Positions 6,082-64,000 of a stretch of DNA of 64,000 bases are shown in pieces (position 1 is the stretch's first letter; each line of letters opens with the position of its first letter). A program made the translations under genes and the position numbers. A model generated the notes under the pieces. The model had not been told where the DNA came from. It saw only the letters and a list, made by a program, of their open reading frames with translations, and made no database searches. Source of the DNA: Candidatus Altimarinota bacterium (GTDB lineage Bacteria > Patescibacteriota > Gracilibacteria > BD1-5 > UBA2023); NCBI GenBank assembly GCA_031407385.1, contig JANOIH010000004.1:4104-68103 (forward strand), given 5' to 3'.

Positions 6082-7248
6082 ATGAAACTCTTCAACATCA
6101 CCGATATATTCAACAACATCATAACTATGAGTCCCGAGACACTCGAGGCGTTCCATGATGAGCTGCACACCAACTACAAGAAGCTCCGCAAAGATCTCGA
6201 CGTGGACAATCTCCGTGTCCTCGGCAATCGTATCCAGACGGTCATCGATGGCAATATCAAAAAACTCGGACACAAAGAGCAACACAAGCTCCACAAGCTC
6301 GAGACACTTGCTCGTGAGATCAGCGAGACCGTGATCGAGATCGAGACCGCGCAGAAGAACGCCATAGAACTCGTAGATCTGGAGAAGAAGTTCGACAAAA
6401 AATACAAAGCCCTCAAAGAGCTCCCAAAAGAAAAAGCGAAAACTCATGTCCTCATCGCCATGAAGAAGTCTGAGATCAACTATGAAGAAGAGATGCTCAC
6501 CCTCCAGATCGAGCTCGTGAAGCTCCAGAAGTATATCCAAGAGTCAGGGAAGAAAGTACTTATCATATTCGAGGGACGTGATGCAGCAGGGAAGGGTGGC
6601 AATATCAAGAGATTCACTGAGTCACTCAATCCTCGCTATGCGAAGGTGGTTGCCCTCATGAAGCCGAGTGAGATCGAGAAGTGACAGTGGTACTTCCAGA
6701 GATATCTCGCACACCTTCCGAACGCAGGTGAGATGGTATTTTTTGACCGATCATGGTACAACCGTGCCGGTGTCGAACCAGTGATGGGATTCGTCGGGAA
6801 GCGCGACTATGAGAAGTTTATGGATGATGTACCACTTCTGGAGAAGATGCTCGTGAAGTCCGGGATCAAGATCATCAAGTTCTACTTCTCAGTATCCAAG
6901 ACCGAACAGGCAACACGATTCCACGAACGTCGTACGAACCCACTCAAGCAGTACAAGCTCTCTCCTATCGATCAGTTCTCTCAGAAACTCTGGGATCGCT
7001 ATACTCTCGCGGAATATGAGAACTTCTCCCGGACGCACTCAGACCATGCCCCATGGACGATCATCAACAGCGATGACAAGGAGGCATCTCGTATCAACTC
7101 GATCAAGTATATCCTAAACCAGTTCGACTATCCTGAGAAGATCGATGCGAGCAAGATCGAAGTCGATGACAAGATCGTCCATACAGGACGAGAGAAGGTT
7201 CGCCTCCTCGAGAAGGATGTAGATATGGCGAAGAGTCTGTTTGAATAG
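6082..7248 (+). CDS. ppk2: Polyphosphate kinase 2 with ~150-aa coiled-coil N-terminal extension
   Basis: GRDAAGKGG Walker A, ...EIEK-G(TGA 6682-6684)-QWYFQRYLAHLPNAGEMVFFDRSWYNRAGVE. 388 aa. Confidence 0.85.
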
Positions 7249-10217: not shown

Positions 10218-11163
10218 CGACATATCCCGAGATATCACCTCACATCTCTCTCCCGAGTCACGCACTCCCGAGATGGAGGAGCTGATCCGTGTCGTCTCTA
10301 CAGTGCGGCCACAGGTACACATCGATCGCACCTATCAGAAGGAGCTCCGATCTCGTCTCATGAGCAAGACGTCCAAGAGATATATATTCTCCCTTCCTAT
10401 CTGGACAGGAGTCGTCTCGACTGTATTCGCGGCACTCATATGAGTATTCGCCCTATCGAGTATCTGGACTCCCCGTGAGGTGAGCAACGAGATCGATCCT
10501 ATCAGCTCCATGATCTCCGATACCCCTCAGACGTCCAGTACGACTGCCACACTCTCACAGAGTGAGATGCCGACAGTACGTGATATCCCATGAGAGTCGC
10601 AGAAAATCCTACACTCAGAGATCGTCACTCAGTCTACGCCCAAGTCTCTGAGTACAACAGAGACAGATATGCCCACGCCTGATATGATGATGCGCAGTAC
10701 TGAAGCTACCCCAACTGATATATCAGTTCCCATCGAGTGAGCTGCTATGATGACATCTATAGCACCATCACCTACTCTGGATACGACGCCTCTCGATACC
10801 GAGATCACGGATATGATGTCAGAGATCAGCTCGATCATCCATCCTCCGACTGTGACTATCGTGATCCCACCGTATCCTCGCCAGATGACTCTCTATGAGC
10901 AGGGTGTCGCCTTCACTCCAGCGGAGATCAGTTCCCAGACTGGTACATCACTCACTGTCCGCACCGTCGATACGATCTCTGATACCGCTCTGCTCCGCAA
11001 AAAAATCACCGCACTCACAACATGAGATCAGATCGTATGAGAAGGTCAGGTGATCTATCAGGAATTCACACGATCAGGTATCCATACTCTCGTCCCAGTC
11101 CTATCATATACTCTCACATCAGAGAAGGTGATATCGGTGAGTCTGGTGGTAGGATATGAGTAG
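10201..11163 (+). CDS. Putative anti-sigma factor (single-pass membrane protein)
   Basis: Overlaps the sigma gene by 17 nt. One TM (IFSLPIWTGVVSTVFAALI) and a Thr/Ser/Pro-rich extracytoplasmic part. Frame checked open with 5 TGA. Assignment is by position only. Confidence 0.45.
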
Positions 11164-13548: not shown

Positions 13549-16500
13549 TTAGAGATATTTCTTCAGGATTGCCTCTTTCTGAGCTGGGATATTCGCGAGT
13601 TCTGATTCGAGTACAGAGATCTCTACATCTATCTGCTCGATCTCTGTGACTATACGCTGTTGTTCTGAGAGAAGAGGAAGTGGGATTTCAAAAGATGAAT
13701 ATTGTTGAGCATTGATATTTGGCTGAGCTGTTCCAGCTCTATTGTTCAATACCCAATTCTTATAGTAATCAGCTTTTAGTATAAAATTCAGAAAACTCGC
13801 ATCAAGAATATCTTCTTTGGTTCTAAATCGAATTAGATATCCTGCATATAATGCTTTGCCGAATTCTTCCCTATAGAAGAATGTCTTTCCTGCTGTTGCT
13901 CATGATCGTGCAAACAAAAAATCTCCATCACTTAGTATATATTTTTCTGCCACTGTTTCTGCTGTTTTCCATTCATTATTGAGCTTCCCACTATCGTTTA
14001 TATCTGTGATTCTGATATATCGATAATCTTTTTCTGGATTTCATTCTGTGGCACTTTCATTGGCTCCATACATTGGTTCGTGACATACCACACCAAGTTT
14101 GCAAAGATTATATTGTCCATAATAGCCATTAGCCCTCTTAACGATATCAGACTTATGTACTCCTAATTTCTCCTTGTTCTTAGCCTCTTTCTTCTCTAGT
14201 ATCTCCATCTCATCGATGATCTGTTGTTGTGTATCGAGAGATGGGAGTGGGATTTTGATATTTGATAAATCCTCACCATATACATGAGGCTGTGCCTGTC
14301 ATCTCTGCAATCCATATACCTCTGACTGAACTGTTTTCAGAAAAAGAGATATCAACTTTGTTGATATTATCGACTCATCTTTCGACTGTACTGTATTGCA
14401 ATCTGATGCAAAAATAGGAGTCGTGAAATAGTTCACAAAACCTGCATATGCACCTGATGCACTTATTGTGATAATATCACCTGTTCGATTGGACTCATTA
14501 TGAAAATAAGCTTCTTGTTGTCCTCATGCAATGACAGGAATAATTCAATCTTTGATTTTATCCTTTGTTATTGAAGTTCATTTCCATATCTTAGCGACTT
14601 CTCCGAGGGAGACTAATTTATTACTTTTCCAGATATCCTCATATTTAACTTTTTTTTTTACGGAAAGTGATATCGTTTTCTCAAACTCAGCTCGATCGAG
14701 CGTGAGCATATCGACGAGACTAACATGAGATATATACTGCTCTAGACTCGCAACTATAGGTCGATCATGGCGACCTGAGAATGCATCGAGGATATATGTA
14801 TTGACTCGCTCAGGACTCTCTACATCGGCAGGATCGAATAGGAGTGTACACTCATCGATCGTCTTGCCACGACGGATCGGATGGATACCCTCATCTCACT
14901 TGCGGTTCGAGAACTCATATCCGAGGAAATTTTTCTCATCTTGCTTGTCTCCGCTCTTCACAAGGACGATCTCTTGTCCGTATGCGAGGATATAGTAGAG
15001 TATCTTCTCTCGTTCAAGAGTGATGACCTGAGCGAGCCAGTCCTTTGGATTTTTGGATCTTATCTTTTTCTGGTAGTCGGTGTATATTTCATGGCTCTGC
15101 ATAGCCTCACTCGGCTCTCCAGATATGAGGCTGATATAGTCATCGAGCGATATCGTCTGCCAGACATGAGAGACATATTTCGAAATCCCATTTTCGAGGA
15201 CAGTATTATTTGTGAAGTTTGTCTTGATATTGATATCCTTATGATTCTGGAAAAAGTTCTTAATTCCAGTTTCGATACTTTCAAAATCATAGTTGCTCCG
15301 TCTCCTCAAGAATAATATCACTGTATTCGTCCCTGTTGCCATGAATGTCCCACTCCCGAGCTCGACGATCGCGACGAACTCAAAATACTTAAGAAGTATC
15401 TCACGAGTCTTGGTATATATGCCACCATTGGATAATATACTCGATGGGAGGATGATCGCAGCGATACCTCACTCTGCGAGGAGCTGCTTGGTCCGCTCGA
15501 TGAAGAGACTCTCTATCTGTGAGCTCTGATCCGTGAGGGCATCATAGAGGACGAAGTCTTTGTCTGCGGAGCGATTTTTCAAATTCCCTTTGCAAGCCGA
15601 TACGCTATACGGAGGATTGGAGAGAACAAAGTCAAATTGCCCGTTATCCTGAGTTCCTGGGATTATTTTTTTGAGCTTCTTCGAATAACTATCTGAATGC
15701 GTGAAACTATCGAGTCCGTCACCATGGATGACATTGGCGATACCATCACCATGGAGATAACACCCAACCTTGGTCGTCTTCACCAGACGATAGTCGAGCT
15801 CGACACCATAGATATACTCATACGCCCACTTGAACCCATGTCTTTGCCAGTCCTCGAGCTCTTGTCCTGCTGACCGAGGGAAATCCTTGACCTCTAGTGT
15901 CTGGATGATATTCTGGAGCTCTTCCATCGACTCAGTGAGGAAGTGTCCGCTCCCTGCAGCGTAGTCGATGATATTCGGGAGGAGCTCACCTCTGGCTCCT
16001 GACTTGAGTTTCTTCTCAGTGATCTGACGCATCGGGATACTCTTGCAGATGAATCTCGCGATCGGTACAGGGGTGAAGAATTGTCCTGCCTCTTGCTTGA
16101 GTCCTGTTGTGAGCAGGAGCTCGAAAAAGTCACCTAAAAATGGTTGTTTTTTTGCATAGCGAAACCTGTATCCCTGGAGAAGTTCGACTACTTCTTTGAG
16201 GACTTTTGCATTTTCTTCAAATGTCTCTTCATCGAATACTTCTTTGATAGCGAACTCGTTGTTCTTCTGGAGACGGATACGAGTGAATTCTCTGAGAATA
16301 TCTTGTTTGATCTTCTCATCAGTGATAGCCATACCGAACTTCCGATGGAAATCATCATCAGAAAGATCACTGATATCTTTTTCGAGAAAATCCTTCATTC
16401 CCTTCTTATAGAGGTCTGAGAGTCTCTTCTGAAATGATATCGAGTCATCTTCTCCTTCCTTCCACTGAAAATCTACTTCCTCGTCTTCGTCGGTACGATC

Positions 16501-49393: not shown

Positions 49394-49537
49394 AAACTTG
49401 CATTCTACAAAATAATCATATAATAGGCGTAAGTGAAACAAAGACCTGCCCATTGGGCGAGTCTTTTTTTTGACCAGAGTTGCCTCTTGTTTCTAGAAGT
49501 TCCATCCATCCAACTAATATCTAACCTACTATAATAT

Positions 49538-50647
49538 ATGTTCGACATATCCAAGATCGAAGCCGCCATCAACGTGATCGCCGCTGAGAAAAAAATCCCA
49601 AAAGAAAAGCTCGTCGAGATCATCGAGCATGCGATCAAAACAGCATACAAAAAAGACTACGCCAGCAAAGACGCCAATGTGAATGTAAAACTCGACATGG
49701 CAAGTGGTAAGTTCGATATCTCTATCGAGAAGACGATCGTCGCTGAAGTGACAGATCCAAGTATCGAGATCAGCTACGAAGATATCGGTGGTGATGAATC
49801 AGGATTTGCTCTCGGTGATACTGTCGAGATAGACGTCACTGATGAGGTCACCTCCTCAGAAGGATTCGGTCGTATCGCTTCTCAGGCAGCGAAGCAAGTC
49901 ATCGTCCAGAAGATCGGCGAGACTGAGAAGGAGAAGCTCTACCACCTCTTCAAGGACAAGGAAGATACGATCGTGAGTATGCGTGTGGAGCTCGTGGAGA
50001 AGAACCGTGTGGTTTTTGACTACAATGGGAACCAGGTCGTCCTCCCGAAGAGTGAGCAAAACCCGAAGGATAAATATATCCCAGGACAGCGTATGTACCT
50101 CTACGTCCGTAGTTGTGAGATCGATCCAGTCACTGGTCCTCGTGTGAATCTCTCTCGTAAGGATAAGGAACTCGTGGTGAAGCTCTTCGAGAACGGAACT
50201 CCAGAGCTCGAAGATGGTGTCGTCGAGATCGTCTCACTCGCTCGTATGCCAGGTGTAAAAACAAAAATCATCGTCGCCTCAGATGACGAAGATGTCGATC
50301 CAGCTGGATGTCTCATCGGACCCAAGGGTATGCGTGTCCGTACTATTGTCGATGAGCTCTTCGGTGAGAAGATCGATATCCTCAACTATACGACCAACCA
50401 AGAGGAGATGGTACGCCGAGCCCTCGTCCCTGGTATTGTAGAAAAAATCGAAATCGACGAAGAGAATAACATCATCCGCGCAACTGTGAAGGATGAGGAG
50501 AAGGCAAAGGTCCTGGGACGTGGTGGAACCAATATCAACATCGCCGGTGAACTCCTCGGATATCGTATCTCTCTCACGACTATAGAGGGTGAGAAGGTAG
50601 AGCCTACAGAAGCAGCAAGAGAAGTCGCTCTAACGCCTGCAATATAA
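49538..50647 (+). CDS. nusA: Transcription termination/antitermination factor NusA
   Basis: Intact 369-aa ORF with N-terminal, S1 and KH domains (GPKGMRVRTIVDEL, LGRGGTNINIAGELLG). Confidence 0.9.
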   Translation: MFDISKIEAAINVIAAEKKIPKEKLVEIIEHAIKTAYKKDYASKDANVNVKLDMASGKFDISIEKTIVAEVTDPSIEISYEDIGGDESGFALGDTVEIDVTDEVTSSEGFGRIASQAAKQVIVQKIGETEKEKLYHLFKDKEDTIVSMRVELVEKNRVVFDYNGNQVVLPKSEQNPKDKYIPGQRMYLYVRSCEIDPVTGPRVNLSRKDKELVVKLFENGTPELEDGVVEIVSLARMPGVKTKIIVASDDEDVDPAGCLIGPKGMRVRTIVDELFGEKIDILNYTTNQEEMVRRALVPGIVEKIEIDEENNIIRATVKDEEKAKVLGRGGTNINIAGELLGYRISLTTIEGEKVEPTEAAREVALTPAI

Positions 50648-50663
50648 TCCAGAACATCACAAC

Positions 50664-50694
50664 AGTCCTCCTAGATACTCGGGAGGACTTTTTT
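50664..50694 (+). terminator. Intrinsic terminator after nusA
   Basis: agtcctcc-tagatactc-gggaggact followed by tttttt. Confidence 0.6.
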
Positions 50695-50767
50695 GGTATA
50701 CAAAATATCCCAATATTTGACAGAACTCACACACTTATGATATGCTGATCTTATATAACTCTATCTC

Positions 50768-52063
50768 ATGAGGCAATCATTGATACATATCATTCGCAAA
50801 CCACTCTACCAGTGACTCTTGATCCTGAGTTGCATGGCTATCGGAGTATCATCTCTGGTGGCATGATTCGACATATCGTTGGATGGTATATTCGGTACAA
50901 TTCAAGCTCCTGGTACTTTCATAACATCTGGCAATGCTGGTCAGATCATCATCTCATCATGAGGAGCAACATGTGATCCCAATATAGGACTCTGTTATGA
51001 TAGCGTCACTCAGTCATTCTCTGGTTGAGTTTTTGCAGAAACGGTTGGATGGGTACAGTTCGGTGTCACTGGTCATCCTGTCACAGCGATCCTCCCAACA
51101 GATATCAATAGTCTCGCACCATGGACTCTCACGGGGTACGCCTGGAGTGACAATGCCGGATGGATCACACTCGGTTGTCTGGGTGACTGTAGTTACAGTG
51201 GAGTTGCCTATGTACCTAATAGTACCGTGAGCTTCACTGGTACTGCGTGGAGTGATACTCTAGGATATATAGAACTCACCTCGGGAACTGCCGACTTCAC
51301 CAACAAGGTAAAAGTGATCGGTAGTACCGCTGGAGGCAGTGCATGGAGTGTGAACTATGATATCGGAAGTACGTATGATACGGTGAAATTGGCACCATTC
51401 CTCTCTCAGGTTCGCAAGAATATAGCACTCCTAACACGGAATACTGGGACGGCCGCAGTCAATACAACTACCACTACAACCAAAGAATTCGGGAATATCA
51501 GATACTATAAGCTCACAGGCCAGACACTCAGAGTTATCGATGGAGCCTTCAGTACTGTAGATAGTATCATCGTCGAGTGAGGAGATATCGAGATAGAGGA
51601 TGACGTAGTAAAAGAAAGTACAAGATCACCCAGATCTATCATCGCAATCCAGAATAGCAGTGGGAGTGGTGGCAATATTTTTGTAAACAATAGTGTCAAA
51701 AATATATATAGTTCTCTCATCGCTGAATGATCGGTCTACTCTGGAGAAGATGCTACAACTCTCTATAACGATACGAGAGCCAAGATCGCCAATCTCCCGA
51801 AGACTCAACTCTATATCTATGGGAACGTCATATCTCGCAATACGATCGGATGAGCACTCACAGATACTCCGAGTTGTCCATATACGGTTGCGAATTGTAC
51901 CTATGATCTCGCAATCCGCTATGATCTCAACTACTTCAGATCATACGATAGACAAGTCATCAACAAGTCTGATACAACTGGATATGATGCATACTCAGTG
52001 ATCATCGAACGAGATCCGCGAAGCATAATCGATCCACCTCCAGGTATGAAAAATCTCCAATAA
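50768..52063 (+). CDS. Membrane-anchored surface protein with G.AWSD..GWI.L repeats
   Basis: TM LLILSCMAIGVSSLVAGF; repeats GYAWSDNAGWITL and GTAWSDTLGYIEL. 431 aa. Frame checked open with 8 in-frame TGA. Confidence 0.65.
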
Positions 52064-52102
52064 CACTATCTCATCCTCTTCGTCTTCCTAACCCTCCCTC
52101 CT

Positions 52103-53965
52103 ATGTCTCGCAACTCCTTCATCTGAGTCTCACTCATGGCGATGATCGCCATGAGTACTCTCGTCACGACGATATCAGCAGCTCCACCGATCAATCCTAT
52201 CGATCAAAGCCCGAATGTTCAAGGATTATTCGCTACCTATTTCCAGAATATGATCAACACACCCTGTGCTCTTGGATCTGTGATCTCAGGATTCTCATCT
52301 AGTGCAACTGATTATGGCAAGAATACGTGTGTATCTATCGTAACTACTCTCACAAACACGTATCCGACGCTCTTCGATATCACTTGGCTCAAAAATGGAG
52401 CCAATATCTCCTATATTGGAGGCAATGTGGGTATCGGAATAGCGAATCCTACAGCCAATCTCGAAGTTGCTGGTCAGATAAAGGTCACTGGAGGTGTGCC
52501 AGGGTTAGGCAAGTTCCTCACCTCAGATGCAACTGGTCTCGCGAGTTGGACAACATTCACGAGCGGATTGCCAGCAACAGCACTCTTTGGTCAGACTCTC
52601 AGATATGATGGTCTCTCTTGGGTTGCCAATAGTAATATATATGACAATGGATTCAACATCGGTATCGGTACGCTCTCCCCTCTCTACAAGCTCGAAGTCA
52701 ATGGTAAGATATGATCTCACACCACACTCTCCACAGACAACGATAATACAGTGACTACCAAGAACTATGTCGATGCGAGACTCGCAAGTCTCTGTACGAG
52801 TCTAGGTGGTACATGGAACAACGCCACAGACATATGTACTCCTGCAGTGACCTATAGTTGGCAATTGGGAACAACATATGGAGCATGTAGTGTTACTTGT
52901 GGTGGTGGGACACAGAGTGCACCAGCAGTATGCAAGCAGAGCAATGGAACTATAGTTGCTGATGCTCTCTGTGCTGGAGCCAAGCCTGCAGCTATGAGTC
53001 AGAGCTGTAACACACAGGCATGTATACCAGTAGTCAATGGAGGATGGTCAGTATGGGGAGGAGGATCATGTAGTGCGAGTTGTGGAGGGGGTACTATGAC
53101 ACAGACTCGTACTTGTAATAATCCTGCACCATCAGGTGGTGGGGCTAATTGCGGAGGATCATCAACACAGTCTATTAGCTGCAATACTCAAGCATGTGTC
53201 GTAGCAGTCAATGGATCATGTGGAGGATCAGCCAATACTTGTGGAGCTGGTAGTCCATCTGCATACTCAGCTGGAAGCTGTGGAGGATCTCAGACATGGA
53301 GTTGTCTCGGTTCAGGAGGAGGAACAAATGCTACAAGTTGTAGCATTGCCAATGCTGCATGTGCACTTGCTTCGTGTACCTATCCAGGTGGAACTGAATA
53401 CTGGGGTTCATGTGGCGTATCCATATGAGCGACTACTATTGCTCATGGAGGAAGTGCATGACCATTTACGAATACAGCCTGAGGATATGTGGGAAGTATT
53501 TCTTACTGATGTAATAATGGTACGTTTACTGTAGCGAGTCAATCTTGTAGTCCGGCTCCTGTGAATGGTTCATGTGGTGGTGGGGCCAATACTTGTGGGG
53601 CTGGTAGTCCATCTGGATACTCAGCTGGTTCGTGTGGAGGATCTCAGACATGGAACTGTCTCGGCTCAGGAGGAGGGAGTAGTGCTAATTGTAGTATTGC
53701 CAATACTGCATGTATCAACTATACTTATACGGCCTTCTCTGCTGCATCTGGGCAGGCATGTAGTGCGAGCCATCCTGGATATATAGAGGTAGCAATATGA
53801 TGTAGACGTGATGCAAATGGTGTATTCGACGGGTATGATCCATGGCCTATGCCAAATTGTCCATGAGCAGCAGATATGGCTGGTACACGGTTCCGACATT
53901 GTAAAGATCCCGATGTACCTGGCAGTTGGGATCAGTCCTTTGATGGAAATTGGATAGTATTTTAG
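52103..53965 (+). CDS. Secreted protein: tail-fibre-like NVGIG repeats, two thrombospondin type-1 repeats, two Cys/Gly-rich repeats
   Basis: 620 aa across 9 in-frame TGA. TSR consensus GGWSVWGGGSCSASCGGGTMTQTRTCNNPAPSGGGANCGGSSTQSISCNTQAC. Stop TAG 53963-53965. Confidence 0.7.
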
Positions 53966-53980
53966 AATACCCTAGAGTGC

Positions 53981-54015
53981 AAAAAATCCGTCCCGAATAC
54001 TCGGGACGGATTTTT
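53981..54015 (+). terminator. Intrinsic terminator
   Basis: aaaaaatccgtcccg-aatac-tcgggacggattttt. Confidence 0.65.
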
Positions 54016-54195
54016 AATATGATACACTAATTGACCTTGCATTCAACTCCCTCGATCACATTATTATCGATAGAGGGTGCATTAATCATGAGTCATACCT
54101 CTGTGATTCGAACGATACGATATCACCCACCTTCGAGAATCAGTTCACCACCTGGCAAGTGAGCAGAGAACACGCTAGATAAAAAGAAGACTCAG

Positions 54196-54312
54196 GTCTT
54201 AGGGCCTGGTAGAACCAATATCAACATCGCCGGTGAACTCCTCGGTTATCGTATCTCTCTCACGACGATCGAAGGGAGTCAGGTCGATCCAACAGAAGTC
54301 GTTGCAGAATAA
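54196..54312 (+). pseudogene. Orphan duplicate of the nusA 3' end (last ~38 codons)
   Basis: 54212-54266 matches nusA 50526-50580 at 54 of 55 positions. Reads ...GPGRTNINIAGELLGYRISLTTIEGSQVDPTEVVAE-stop. No upstream nusA body. Confidence 0.75.
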
Positions 54313-54424
54313 TGGACATGCCACGTATGGCATGTCTGACGTTCCAAAAATCCCCTCAGAATAATTCTGAGGGGATTTTGTATGGATGAAAGGTTATTCA
54401 AGTCTACCTATATAGAAACAAATA

Positions 54425-54808
54425 TTAAATAAGTCCTGGTGCAATATCTAAGATATCACCCTCCTCAATTTTTCTTCCTGCTGGAACTTCGTATATTGAA
54501 ACCATATTTCAATCTTCCGTATTTTGTTGAATGAGTAACTGTAATCTTCCGTCAATATTTGTAAGTTTCATTGCCGTGGCTGATATATCATTATATCCGA
54601 TGGCATTATCAATAAGATTTCGATTATCTCAGTATACATCTGCAAGAAAATCTAAATTTAGAAATTTAGAAACTTTCTGATCTGATCAGCTAATCCAATT
54701 ATCCATAATGGCATTGCGAAAACTCTTGTTTCCTATAATGTTATCCTTGAATTTCATACGATTCACAGTTGTTCAGTCATGGATAGCTTGTATGATATCC
54801 GCTGCCAT
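54425..54808 (-). CDS. Hypothetical protein (127 aa)
   Basis: ATG..TAA frame open with 5 TGA. Overlapped at its 5' end by a second 69-aa frame (54733-54942). Confidence 0.4.
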
Positions 54809-55025
54809 CTGCTTTCATAAGGTATCTTTTGTATCTTGGATACTAGTTCAAGAGCAGGTGTGTCTTGTTGTAGTCAGCTGGTTTTAAGTTGTTCTTTAGC
54901 ACGTTCATACATTGAGGGTTCAAATTTTGGAGATTCTGACATATTGGTAAAAAATAAGTGATAAAGTAAAAATATCTTATCATATGTTGCCCCCACCCCG
55001 TCAAATCCTGAACATCTTTTGTCAC

Positions 55026-63340: not shown

Positions 63341-64000
63341 TTGATTTCCAACGTTCTACTTTATACTTTATACTCTTTACTCTTCCTTCCTTTGGACCCC
63401 AATCAAATATTAATTTTTATAGGACTTATTATACTTTCAGCTTTCTTTTCAGGCACAGAGATTGCATTTTTGAATATATCCAAACATACAGTTCAGGGAC
63501 TCTTACGAGATAAACGGTTCGGTGCAAAGTCACTCGAAATTGTAAAATCTGATATGGATAAGCTCCTTATTACTGTGATGATCGGGAATAATCTCGTCAA
63601 TGTTGGAGCATCTGCTCTGGGGACACTTGCGAGTCTCTCCCTAGCAAAATCCCTCTCACTTCCTGATGAGTATGGAATACTGATAGCAACAGGAGCCGTT
63701 ACGATGATAATCTTATTATTCGGTGATATCACACCGAAGACTATATTTGCTCGTTATAGTGCCCCGATTGCACTCGTCGTTGCTCCGATATATAGAGTCC
63801 TGATTCCTCTATTTTGGCCACTTTCCTTCTTTCTCAACATATTTGTGAAGTTTGTAGCAAATCTGCTTGGCAATGGCGACTATGTGACGAAGATTACGGC
63901 ATCTGAAGTTGAAGCTTTTATCGATATGTCTCATGAAGGTGGTGCGGTGGAGGAGGACGAGCGTCGCCAGATCAAGAATCTCCTCTCTCTCCCAGATATG
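63341..64000 (+). CDS. CNNM/DUF21-family (hemolysin/CorC-like) membrane protein, 3' end outside window
   Basis: LSAFFSGTEIAF...VMIGNNLVNV...FGDITPKT...GAVEEDERRQIKNLL. No in-frame ATG; putative TTG start at 63341. Confidence 0.7.
   Translation, partial: MISNVLLYTLYSLLFLPLDPNQILIFIGLIILSAFFSGTEIAFLNISKHTVQGLLRDKRFGAKSLEIVKSDMDKLLITVMIGNNLVNVGASALGTLASLSLAKSLSLPDEYGILIATGAVTMIILLFGDITPKTIFARYSAPIALVVAPIYRVLIPLFWPLSFFLNIFVKFVANLLGNGDYVTKITASEVEAFIDMSHEGGAVEEDERRQIKNLLSLPDM

Follow-up and report, generated by a model that had tools for sequence, protein, structure and literature searches.

Probable homology-anchored capture of a 3.6-kb chromosomal segment at the nusA 3' end of a Gracilibacterium

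We analyzed the nusA 3' end in the window, meaning the whole 64,000-nucleotide stretch of Candidatus Altimarinota contig JANOIH010000004.1, and found a 3.6-kb segment between two copies of this gene end. The repeat and the insertion are confirmed as real. With a probability of about 0.7, the segment is a piece of the chromosome of another Gracilibacteria lineage that was captured by recombination anchored in nusA, and, judging from its content, it does not appear to be an integrative element. In the closest relatives (L001, L002, and L003), a terminator and then a convergent giant gene come immediately after PAP2-nusA, which represents an empty site, and in L002 and L003 it is 3D-PAP2-nusA that is directly convergent with the giant gene. 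Given these empty sites, and given that the L001 terminator directly after nusA (L001:2374–2405) is 94–97% identical to positions 54346–54379, past the orphaned gene end, about 3.6 kb were inserted and the native nusA terminus was displaced. The displaced end is orthologous to the intact end of the sister genomes, and the nusA body plus the orphan tail amounts to 362 amino acids, the length of the closest NusA. These results bear out the initial annotation, which had proposed that incoming DNA with a replacement nusA 3' end displaced the native terminus and had expected an empty site in sister genomes.

The duplicated nusA end

The region contains the following features.

49538–50647, plus strand: intact nusA, 369 amino acids, with Pfam domains NusA_N, KH_5, and KH_2
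50526–50580, plus strand: left 55-nt core, codons 330–348 (TNINIAGELLGYRISLTT), 54/55 identical to 54212–54266
50664–50689, plus strand: intrinsic terminator A from a terminator scan, the present end of the nusA transcript; L082, L083, and L007 have homologous hairpins after nusA
50717–50746, plus strand: sigma-70-type promoter of the c1-c2 unit, TTGACA-18-TATGCT with an upstream TG, 10/12 consensus match
50768–52063, plus strand: c1, 431 amino acids, N-terminal membrane helix and beta-rich body; 7 in-frame TGA (Gly)
52103–53965, plus strand: c2, 620 amino acids, secreted, Cys/Gly-rich, two thrombospondin type-1 repeats; 8 in-frame TGA
53982–54015, no strand: bidirectional terminator after c2, perfect 15-bp palindrome (inverted repeat I8), in the donor layout common to c2 and a convergent corC
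54027–54142, minus strand: decayed corC/CNNM 3' stub (…GFSKVGDIVSF…, a frameshift, …IDNNVIEGVECKVN, stop), putative leftover of the donor gene after c2
54143–54177, no strand: 35-nt stretch between the corC stub and the nusA homology, putative illegitimate joint at or near the right edge
54178–54211, plus strand: U', nusA-derived and decayed (DKKKTQVLGPGR versus the invariant DEEKAKVLGRGG), 17–23/34 identical to every functional nusA
54212–54266, plus strand: right 55-nt core, undecayed, 54/55 identical to the left copy, 0/35 conserved columns changed (Fisher p = 7e-4 versus U')
54267–54312, plus strand: displaced native nusA tail and stop (…IEGSQVDPTEVVAE, stop), in frame with the core; the tails of relatives are equal in length and form
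54315–54336: further hairpin 3' of the orphan
54347–54379, no strand: terminator B, the native nusA terminator, 16-bp perfect palindrome (inverted repeat I7)

The 55-bp repeat with one mismatch that had first been noticed is present as described, the sole difference being A/T at 50560/54246. It lies within a longer in-register homology of the two nusA ends (50492–50612 versus 54178–54298; 121 nt, 81% identity), with 68% identity in the upstream 34 nt, 98% in the core, and 66% in the downstream 32 nt, and on either side of this homology identity drops to background levels (10–29%). Only 8 of 200,000 random 34-mers from the window reached at least 23/34 identity to the upstream 34 nt. A nusA 3'-end profile built from 47 loci matched 54177–54296 (E = 4e-23), and among 51 loci a second nusA match was found in the window and in L025 only. 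Both the profile and the in-register homology place the orphan start at 54177/54178 instead of 54196, the position given in the initial annotation, and local alignment and in-register comparison found no more nusA homology upstream of 54178. The second copy reads in frame to its own stop (…DKKKTQVLGPGRTNINIAGELLGYRISLTTIEGSQVDPTEVVAE) and is followed by its own terminators (54315–54336 and 54347–54379) with no nusA body upstream, in line with the earlier description.

Of the columns with 90% or higher conservation across 43 nusA genes, 7/23 were changed in U' and 0/35 in the right core. Given that decay ends so sharply at 54211/54212, this position probably marks a recombination breakpoint. 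The displaced tail was 25–26/32 identical to those of L012, L030, and L083; in the explanation that we propose, the native nusA end, composed of core, tail, and terminator B, would be an untranslated orphan.

The intact nusA is still a complete 369-amino-acid ORF with all domains, with 97% amino acid identity to P0001; an exact-product look-up of the window NusA returned no record. From about the 55-nt core on, its 3' end corresponds to the incoming haplotype and closes with a long tail (…EKVEPTEAAREVALTPAI, stop); only the last ~22 codons were swapped. L083 has the same long tail, stop, and TCCAGAACATCA, and the attached tail and terminator A belong to the L083/L082 haplotype, unlike those of L001–L003. 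Within the 3' third of the gene, identity to L083 declines (97% to 78%), and identity to L001 is patchy along nusA, indicating a mosaic.

The core is the best-conserved part of the nusA 3' end (84–96% between species; 53/55 to L001), and as direct repeats its two near-identical copies bracket the insert in an att-like manner. A near-perfect core between diverged arms also resembles an att site, which is a point against capture. A scan of metagenome contigs with the 55-nt core, allowing three degenerate positions, gave 0 matches.

The inserted genes and their relatives

The cargo forms a self-contained transcription unit, in which c1 and c2 would have roles as a membrane-anchored and a secreted adhesin-like protein, respectively. 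Both ORFs are open only with TGA as a sense codon, and the genome, like the cargo, reads TGA as glycine (code 25, Gracilibacteria). GC, GC3, and TGA-codon share did not set the insert apart from the remaining genome, and in the comparison with the flanks that the initial annotation had suggested, its GC resembled theirs. We found 62 homologues of c1, which belonged to no Pfam family; its AlphaFold model, although confident (pLDDT 82.9), had no PDB fold match by Foldseek at E below 0.1, and a look-up of P0121, the window c1 translated with code 4, returned no record. In c2, Pfam identified TSP1_ADAMTS (1.4e-7) and TSP_1 (1.9e-5), and the gene has an internal 136-nt repeat (D1).

Locus L082 was colinear with the window over nusA, terminator, promoter, c1, c2, and terminator at 77.6% nucleotide identity, aligning with window positions 49537–53198 in one piece of 3.7 kb and again with 53980–54070, and its gene after c2 is a convergent corC. 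We regard L082 as a donor-type relative at this level of identity, not as the actual donor. The same nusA-terminator-promoter-c1 order was found in L083 and L007, the promoter block is conserved in all three loci, and the N-terminal half of c2 is common to the L082 and L083 neighbors. The c2 terminator and its flank were 78–80% identical to L082:6632–6718 and L041:961–1045, and in L082 near-identical terminator hairpins flank c1-c2. Genes homologous to c1 adjoin the nusA 3' end in L007, L082, L083, L029, and L084. Contrary to the initial annotation, which considered the cargo unusual for this site, the c1-c2 pair is the ordinary chromosomal neighbor of nusA in other Gracilibacteria (L082, L083, and L007) and has no nusA repeat there.

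By tblastn and DNA alignment, the stub downstream of c2 matched the corC of L082, L041, L022, L007, and L014, and it belongs to the L082/L022 type, whereas the corC that the window has of its own, starting at 63470, represents the other (L003) type. Pfam found no recombinase in the insert, which agrees with the earlier statement that it carries no integrase, and c1 and c2 were rightly listed as its only ORFs, but the decayed corC stub (54027–54142) had been overlooked. The insert had no match in phage or plasmid records, nor did a c1 query in IMG/VR contigs. Given the lack of a recombinase, the colinearity with L082, and the presence of a corC stub alongside the genome's own corC, the insert is probably a chunk of a relative's chromosome. 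The initial reading as an integrative element loses its footing on the same grounds, namely no recombinase, c1-c2 beside nusA elsewhere without a repeat, and a corC stub at the right end.

At this right end, the corC stub and the 35-nt spacer abut nusA codon ~319, as in a non-homologous joint: there was no DNA-level corC homology right of 54142, where a weak protein match ('PE' spacing) was judged unconvincing, nor was there any homology to nusA on the left of 54177/54178. A chimera of two co-occurring strains, produced in assembly or amplification, one with nusA-c1-c2-corC and the other with nusA-terminator-giant gene, could also place these sequences side by side. The window comes from a metagenome-assembled contig (69,038 nt), related strains with differing nusA-c1 haplotypes exist (L083), and the right junction is known from one assembly, L083 ending before it. 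However, a repeat-driven switch needs shared sequence, and corC and nusA share none at 54143–54178. Additionally, the frameshifted, diverged corC stub and the loss of invariant residues in U' are marks of age that would be unexpected when joining intact genes. The largest k-mers that metagenome assemblers commonly use also exceed the 55-nt repeat in length, and we consider a chimera very unlikely. A metagenome scan with the c1 alignment recovered only L088, a 1.7-kb fragment, and no conspecific contig with the right junction or an excised allele.

Route of capture and competing explanations

For the capture that we favor, the donor-type layout would have been that of L082, with nusA, terminator, promoter, c1, c2, shared terminator, and convergent corC, and the incoming fragment would have reached from the last ~150 nt of nusA to ~120–150 nt inside corC. 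The recipient would have carried PAP2-nusA-terminator and then the convergent giant gene. The left join would have arisen by homologous exchange inside nusA, either at the 55-nt core or upstream of it, and nusA would thereby have stayed intact with a donor-type tail and terminator; the right join would be illegitimate, setting the corC stub against nusA codon ~319 and leaving the native nusA end orphaned. Consistent with this route, the left end lies in nusA, where donor and recipient sequences are homologous, and the insert is colinear and includes a partial flanking gene.

Classical homology-facilitated illegitimate recombination usually deletes recipient DNA and does not duplicate it, and therefore a circle or a two-step history must be assumed. 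In a first version, a single crossover of a circularized fragment (Campbell-type insertion-duplication) would fit the duplication and not a deletion. In a second version, the joint would have formed once in an older genome and then spread by ordinary double crossovers in which the nusA body served as left arm and the orphan core plus downstream DNA as right arm; this history would account for a decayed corC stub and U' beside a fresh core, tail, and terminator B. We infer both the order of events and the circular intermediate.

A different explanation is an integrase-less, site-specific element, a cis-mobilizable cassette for which the nusA 3' end would be attB and the 55-nt core the crossover site, and which would bring a replacement nusA tail and be moved in trans by a recombinase encoded elsewhere. 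The 54/55 core between diverged arms, the abrupt identity change at 54211/54212, and the regeneration of the target gene would suit such an element, as would c1-type genes beside the nusA 3' end in six loci and both orientations. A second, independent duplication of the nusA end in L025, where a helicase gene lies between the two ends (empty site in L026), could be read in the same way. However, the L025 cargo is unrelated, its repeat has another start than the window's, and it has no identical core. Moreover, the window insert encodes no recombinase, its right end is the stub of a donor neighbor and not an element end, L082 and L007 carry c1(-c2) beside nusA without any repeat, and the core is the best-conserved nusA 3' stretch. 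We therefore regard a site-specific element as unlikely. The gene inserted in L025, considered as a candidate recombinase, is a ResIII/Helicase_C helicase.

In a local rearrangement without transfer, the nusA 3' end would have been copied on the spot, for instance through template switching during replication at the terminator hairpin, with c1-c2 already resident or moved within the genome. Strong hairpins occur at all joints, the insert has no compositional anomaly, and the two nusA-end copies of L025, spacer and terminator included, are closer to each other than to L026. Such a rearrangement is nevertheless very unlikely, given that the insert is colinear with the L082 nusA-to-corC interval, that a foreign-type corC stub is present and the own corC was kept, and that the L083/L082 haplotype, not the L001–L003 type, is seen in the attached tail and terminator A. 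The present data already point to another lineage for c1, c2, the stub, and the attached tail.

Relation to known systems and significance

Homology-anchored capture with 3'-end displacement is an already known type of event. Capture of this kind with orphaned 3' ends has been described for T6SS effector and rhs loci (PMC5361080), where homology-facilitated illegitimate recombination and the orphaned 3' pieces of rhs, cdiA, and T6SS effector-immunity loci are treated with reference to de Vries & Wackernagel 2002, Prudhomme et al. 2002, and Jackson et al. 2009. As in the rhs, cdiA, and T6SS cases (PMC5361080), a conserved upstream anchor would have received a relative's DNA with the other end joined without homology, the old 3' end was apparently pushed downstream as an orphan retaining a conserved piece, there is no recombinase gene, and the cargo is of a cell-surface or competition type. 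In contrast, the window has a housekeeping transcription factor gene as anchor in place of a toxin gene's constant part, its variable module consists of two separate genes with their own promoter, and the organism is a code-25 Gracilibacterium. A C-terminal displacement array of these families, with one ORF joining a constant 5' part to a toxic tip and with an immunity gene, was not found; the window locus works similarly but is not a member. Unlike the laboratory form of homology-facilitated illegitimate recombination, which usually deletes, the window has recipient sequence duplicated (89–135 nt).

The arrangement also resembles Campbell-type insertion-duplication, in that the target 5' part is followed by donor 3' part, insert, donor 5' stub, and target 3' part, and the homologous segment forms a direct repeat identical only at the crossover. 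However, the window contains no replicon or vector, and a circle would have to have formed by end-joining of a chromosomal fragment. According to PMC13626634, citing Hill et al. 1989, integration of e14 or phage 21 into the Escherichia coli icd 3' end leaves an icdC pseudogene. The window is similar in that the insert provides an alternative 3' end and the target is functional, the displaced native end persists at the far side, and deleting the stretch between the repeats would give back a chimeric gene. Unlike e14, a prophage that carries an integrase of its own and has defined att sites, the window insert has no integrase and a corC stub at its far end. An e14/icd-type insertion, a genomic island, and an ICE/CIME element were considered and set aside, as there is no integrase, the ends do not lie at the core, and the unit does not recur between the same repeats.

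As a clean, datable trace, the scar would record gene flow among lineages in an uncultivated candidate-phyla-radiation group with a recoded TGA (Gly), in which surface-protein genes have probably been brought in via homologous recombination anchored in a conserved housekeeping gene. Knowledge of recombination mechanisms is unchanged by it. The interval after nusA is a recurrent gene-gain site: four close relatives have three different inserts there, and L025 adds the second duplication. Annotators would do best to flag both the orphan nusA end and the corC stub as pseudogene fragments and to avoid the label genomic island or prophage for the locus.

It is improbable that the nusA 3' end and terminator serve as a dedicated swap site for Gracilibacteria surface-protein cassettes, with the orphan core maintained either as the right arm in recombination or as the att site of a trans-acting recombinase. 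If so, c1-c2 would be a portable cassette, subject to insertion, exchange, and deletion between lineages. Observations consistent with a swap site are the undecayed core next to the decayed U', the L025 duplication, the c1-type pairs at six loci in two orientations, and the near-identical hairpins of L082.

The duplicated nusA terminus and the genes between its copies

The end of nusA is present twice in the window. A 55-nt core at 50526-50580 recurs at 54212-54266 with a single-base difference, in agreement with the initial annotation, and the second copy continues in frame up to its own stop (…TNINIAGELLGYRISLTTIEGSQVDPTEVVAE*), is followed by two hairpins and has no nusA body upstream, also as annotated. 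Aligned in register, the arms around the core were 68% identical on the upstream side (50492-50525 vs. 54178-54211, 34 nt) and 66% identical on the downstream side (32 nt), and identity was at background (10–29%) beyond these arms on either side. The upstream similarity was non-random, as 23 matches out of 34 were reached by 8 of 200,000 random 34-mers from the window, and a profile of nusA 3' ends matched 54177-54296 (E = 4e-23).

Under table 11, only short ORFs could be read between the repeats; with TGA as a sense codon, this interval contained exactly two genes, here called c1 and c2. In code-4 translations of NusA relatives, W at TGA sites coincided with Gly in other sequences, and all of these relatives were Gracilibacteria MAGs, which establishes genetic code 25 (TGA read as Gly). 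TGA sense coding was seen throughout the window, with many genes split in table-11 ORF lists, and the public protein P0121 is the c1 of the window in code-4 translation, carrying W at 7/7 TGA positions.

Features from nusA to the right-hand copy of the core
49538-50647, nusA, complete, with NusA_N and two KH domains (Pfam)
50664-50689, terminator between nusA and c1
50717-50746, promoter (good match) between nusA and c1
50768-52063, c1, 431 aa, 7 TGA
52103-53965, c2, 620 aa, 8 TGA
54027-54142, minus strand, frameshifted corC C-terminus (GFSKVGDIVSF… IDNNVIEGVECKVN*)

The segment had been described as encoding two secreted proteins and no integrase. We recovered both genes and found no recombinase gene between the repeats, but the segment additionally holds the corC stub. 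The c1 product has a helix at its N-terminus and matched no Pfam family. Its AlphaFold model, built from 48 sequences, was confident (pLDDT 82.9, pTM 0.78) and had no PDB match with E < 0.1 in Foldseek; therefore, c1 may represent an undescribed fold family limited to Gracilibacteria. The N-terminus of c2 resembles a signal peptide, and two thrombospondin type-1 (TSP1) repeats exceeded Pfam cut-offs (window 52850-53200, residues ~253–365). This repeat is known mainly from animal proteins. Further downstream, c2 contains an internal direct repeat (53207-53342 vs. 53561-53696, 136 nt, 82%) encoding a Cys/Gly-rich module. The c2 of L082, another Gracilibacteria nusA locus, has the N-terminal half and TSP1 repeats in common with that of the window and differs in the C-terminal part, while the counterpart in L084 ends in a Peptidase_S74 domain.

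Empty sites in close relatives and a donor-type locus

The initial annotation had proposed that an insertion displaced the native nusA end and that sister genomes would reveal an empty site, which we found in the closest relatives' loci, L001, L002 and L003. The species representatives L002 (96%) and L003 (92%) kept the backbone of the window on both flanks, in the order 3D-domain protein, PAP2, nusA, convergent giant gene (~1730 aa) and then the next genes, with ~50 nt between nusA and the giant gene. In L001, which encodes the closest NusA (P0001, 97% aa identity, 362 aa), the hairpin directly 3' of nusA was 94–97% identical to window 54346-54379, the hairpin after the displaced nusA end, and the nusA body of the window plus this displaced tail sum to 362 aa, equal to P0001. 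Together, the empty sites, the L001-like terminator and the matching length show that ~3.6 kb entered the nusA 3' end in the lineage of the window and displaced the native end.

Homologues of c1 lie directly 3' of nusA in L007 (68% aa), L082 (77%) and L083 (76%). L082 aligned with window 49537-53198 in one continuous alignment (77.6% nt) comprising nusA, terminator, promoter, c1 and most of c2, and a second time at 53980-54070. The next gene in L082 is a convergent corC/CNNM gene, with the terminator in common. The corC family consensus reads GFPKVGDIVSF… VDDNVIERVECKxK*. By type, the stub belongs with L082 and L022, and it is redundant, since the window has its own corC/CNNM gene of the L003 type (SFPAVGDEVQF; 62% aa to that of L003) from 63470 past the window end. 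Given the colinearity with L082 and the foreign-type stub, we conclude that the insert derives from the chromosome of a relative, with one cut in nusA and the other in corC, and is no element with ends of its own. The attached nusA tail (…PTEAAREVALTPAI*), its stop and the next TCCAGAACATCA correspond to the L083 haplotype (…PTEGAEEATVPAIG*). Purely local duplication of the nusA end would leave this foreign-type tail and the stub unexplained. The proposed comparison of composition with the flanks was run and the insert proved unremarkable, both in GC (45.7% vs. 47–48%) and in the TGA share among Gly codons, as expected for a donor of the same group. No match to the insert was found in phage, plasmid and IMG/VR collections.

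Hairpin terminators flanking c1-c2 (window 50664-50689 and 53982-54015; L082:3694-3741 and 6632-6670) are all members of one sequence family; the two in L082 are nearly identical (CCTCCCGAATATTCGGGAGG), and those in the window resemble each other more loosely. The sole terminator of the cassette-free locus L041 is of the same family, and the terminator may be where the donor clade gains or loses the cassette.

The initial annotation had likened the event to integrative elements. We reject this reading because the insert lacks an integrase and does not end as an element would, its ends being those of a chromosomal fragment that stops inside nusA and corC of a donor-type chromosome. An integrase-less, site-specific cassette is improbable: the near-perfect core between diverged arms does look like an att site, and the nusA end was struck twice, but the right end carries a corC stub, a recombinase is missing, the nusA-c1-c2 loci L082 and L007 are repeat-free, and the core is merely the most conserved nusA 3' stretch (53/55 to L001). 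Every test run agreed with the capture, anchored by homology, of chromosomal DNA from a relative. The outcome matches published accounts of homology-facilitated illegitimate recombination and of 'orphan' 3' ends left at loci for T6SS effectors, rhs and cdi (PMC5361080). In architecture it resembles prophage e14 at icd/icdC, where a replacement 3' end displaced the native end as a pseudogene (PMC13626634). The kind of event is thus already known, and the new particulars are nusA as anchor, a code-25 CPR host and TSP1-repeat cargo.

Recombination junctions and possible routes

The displaced end combines two histories. Its left part (54178-54211) is nusA-derived, about equidistant (50–68%) from all 43 functional nusA genes, and lacks residues that are otherwise invariant, among them those of the KH GxxG motif (GRGG to GPGR), whereas its core and tail are as distant from other functional nusA genes as is typical between orthologues. 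Among columns at least 90% conserved in functional nusA genes, 7/23 were changed in the left part and 0/35 in the core (Fisher p = 7e-4). The corC stub is decayed as well. Position 54211/54212 thus marks a recombination breakpoint, which separates old, decayed DNA on its left from DNA on its right that looks fresh and native. The nusA gene of the window is a recombination mosaic too: against L083:1-953, identity was 96–100% over 49695-50078 and ~78% around the core, and against L001:1276-2364, it alternated between 82% and 99% blocks.

The left end of the insert lies in homologous sequence (nusA), and the right end joins unrelated sequences (corC stub and nusA codon ~319), with recipient sequence duplicated rather than lost and no mobility gene in the insert. 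An assembly chimera at the right junction, which is known only from this assembly, is unlikely, as corC and nusA have no common sequence at the joint and the region is marked as an aged pseudogene. In the simplest one-step route, a circularised donor fragment would have entered by a single crossover in the best-conserved 55 nt (Campbell-type insertion-duplication). Alternatively, the joint could have arisen once, long ago, in some genome, and the whole unit would then have reached the present backbone through an ordinary double crossover, its left arm in the nusA body and its right arm in the displaced core and beyond, leaving the recipient's own fresh tail and terminator (54347-54379) right of 54212. 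The decay pattern fits the two-step route better. Gene conversion by the left copy could likewise keep the core identical but would leave the fresh tail, which differs from that copy, unexplained.

Variability of the nusA 3' flank

A second nusA 3' match occurred only in the window and in L025, among 51 nusA loci. L025 repeats the final 75 nt of nusA and the adjoining terminator (11010-11126) at 13852-13968 (83%), the right copy being frameshifted. Between the copies lies just one gene, which encodes an 803-aa ResIII/Helicase_C protein and has 26 in-frame TGA codons; L026 is the corresponding empty site. This duplication is independent of the event in the window: the cargo and the repeat start differ, and the identical core is absent. 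The closest relative carries another insertion behind its nusA terminator (L001:2467-6971), with minus-strand genes for a NAGPA-domain protein and an S8 peptidase of 1212 aa, and L004 has an S8 peptidase homologue just 3' of nusA on the plus strand; therefore, another gene family recurs at this flank. Pairs of the c1 type adjoin the nusA 3' end in either orientation (convergent in L029 and L084). The interval 3' of nusA is generally variable and constitutes a hot spot.

Between the terminator at 54347-54379 and the giant gene's own terminator, the window has an AT-rich stretch of ~630 nt (54380-55009, 34% GC) that is absent in L001, L002 and L003 and seems to have been inserted separately into this intergenic site. 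It holds a frameshift-split ORF (approximately 54430-54960, minus strand; 69 + 127 aa) without a Pfam family.
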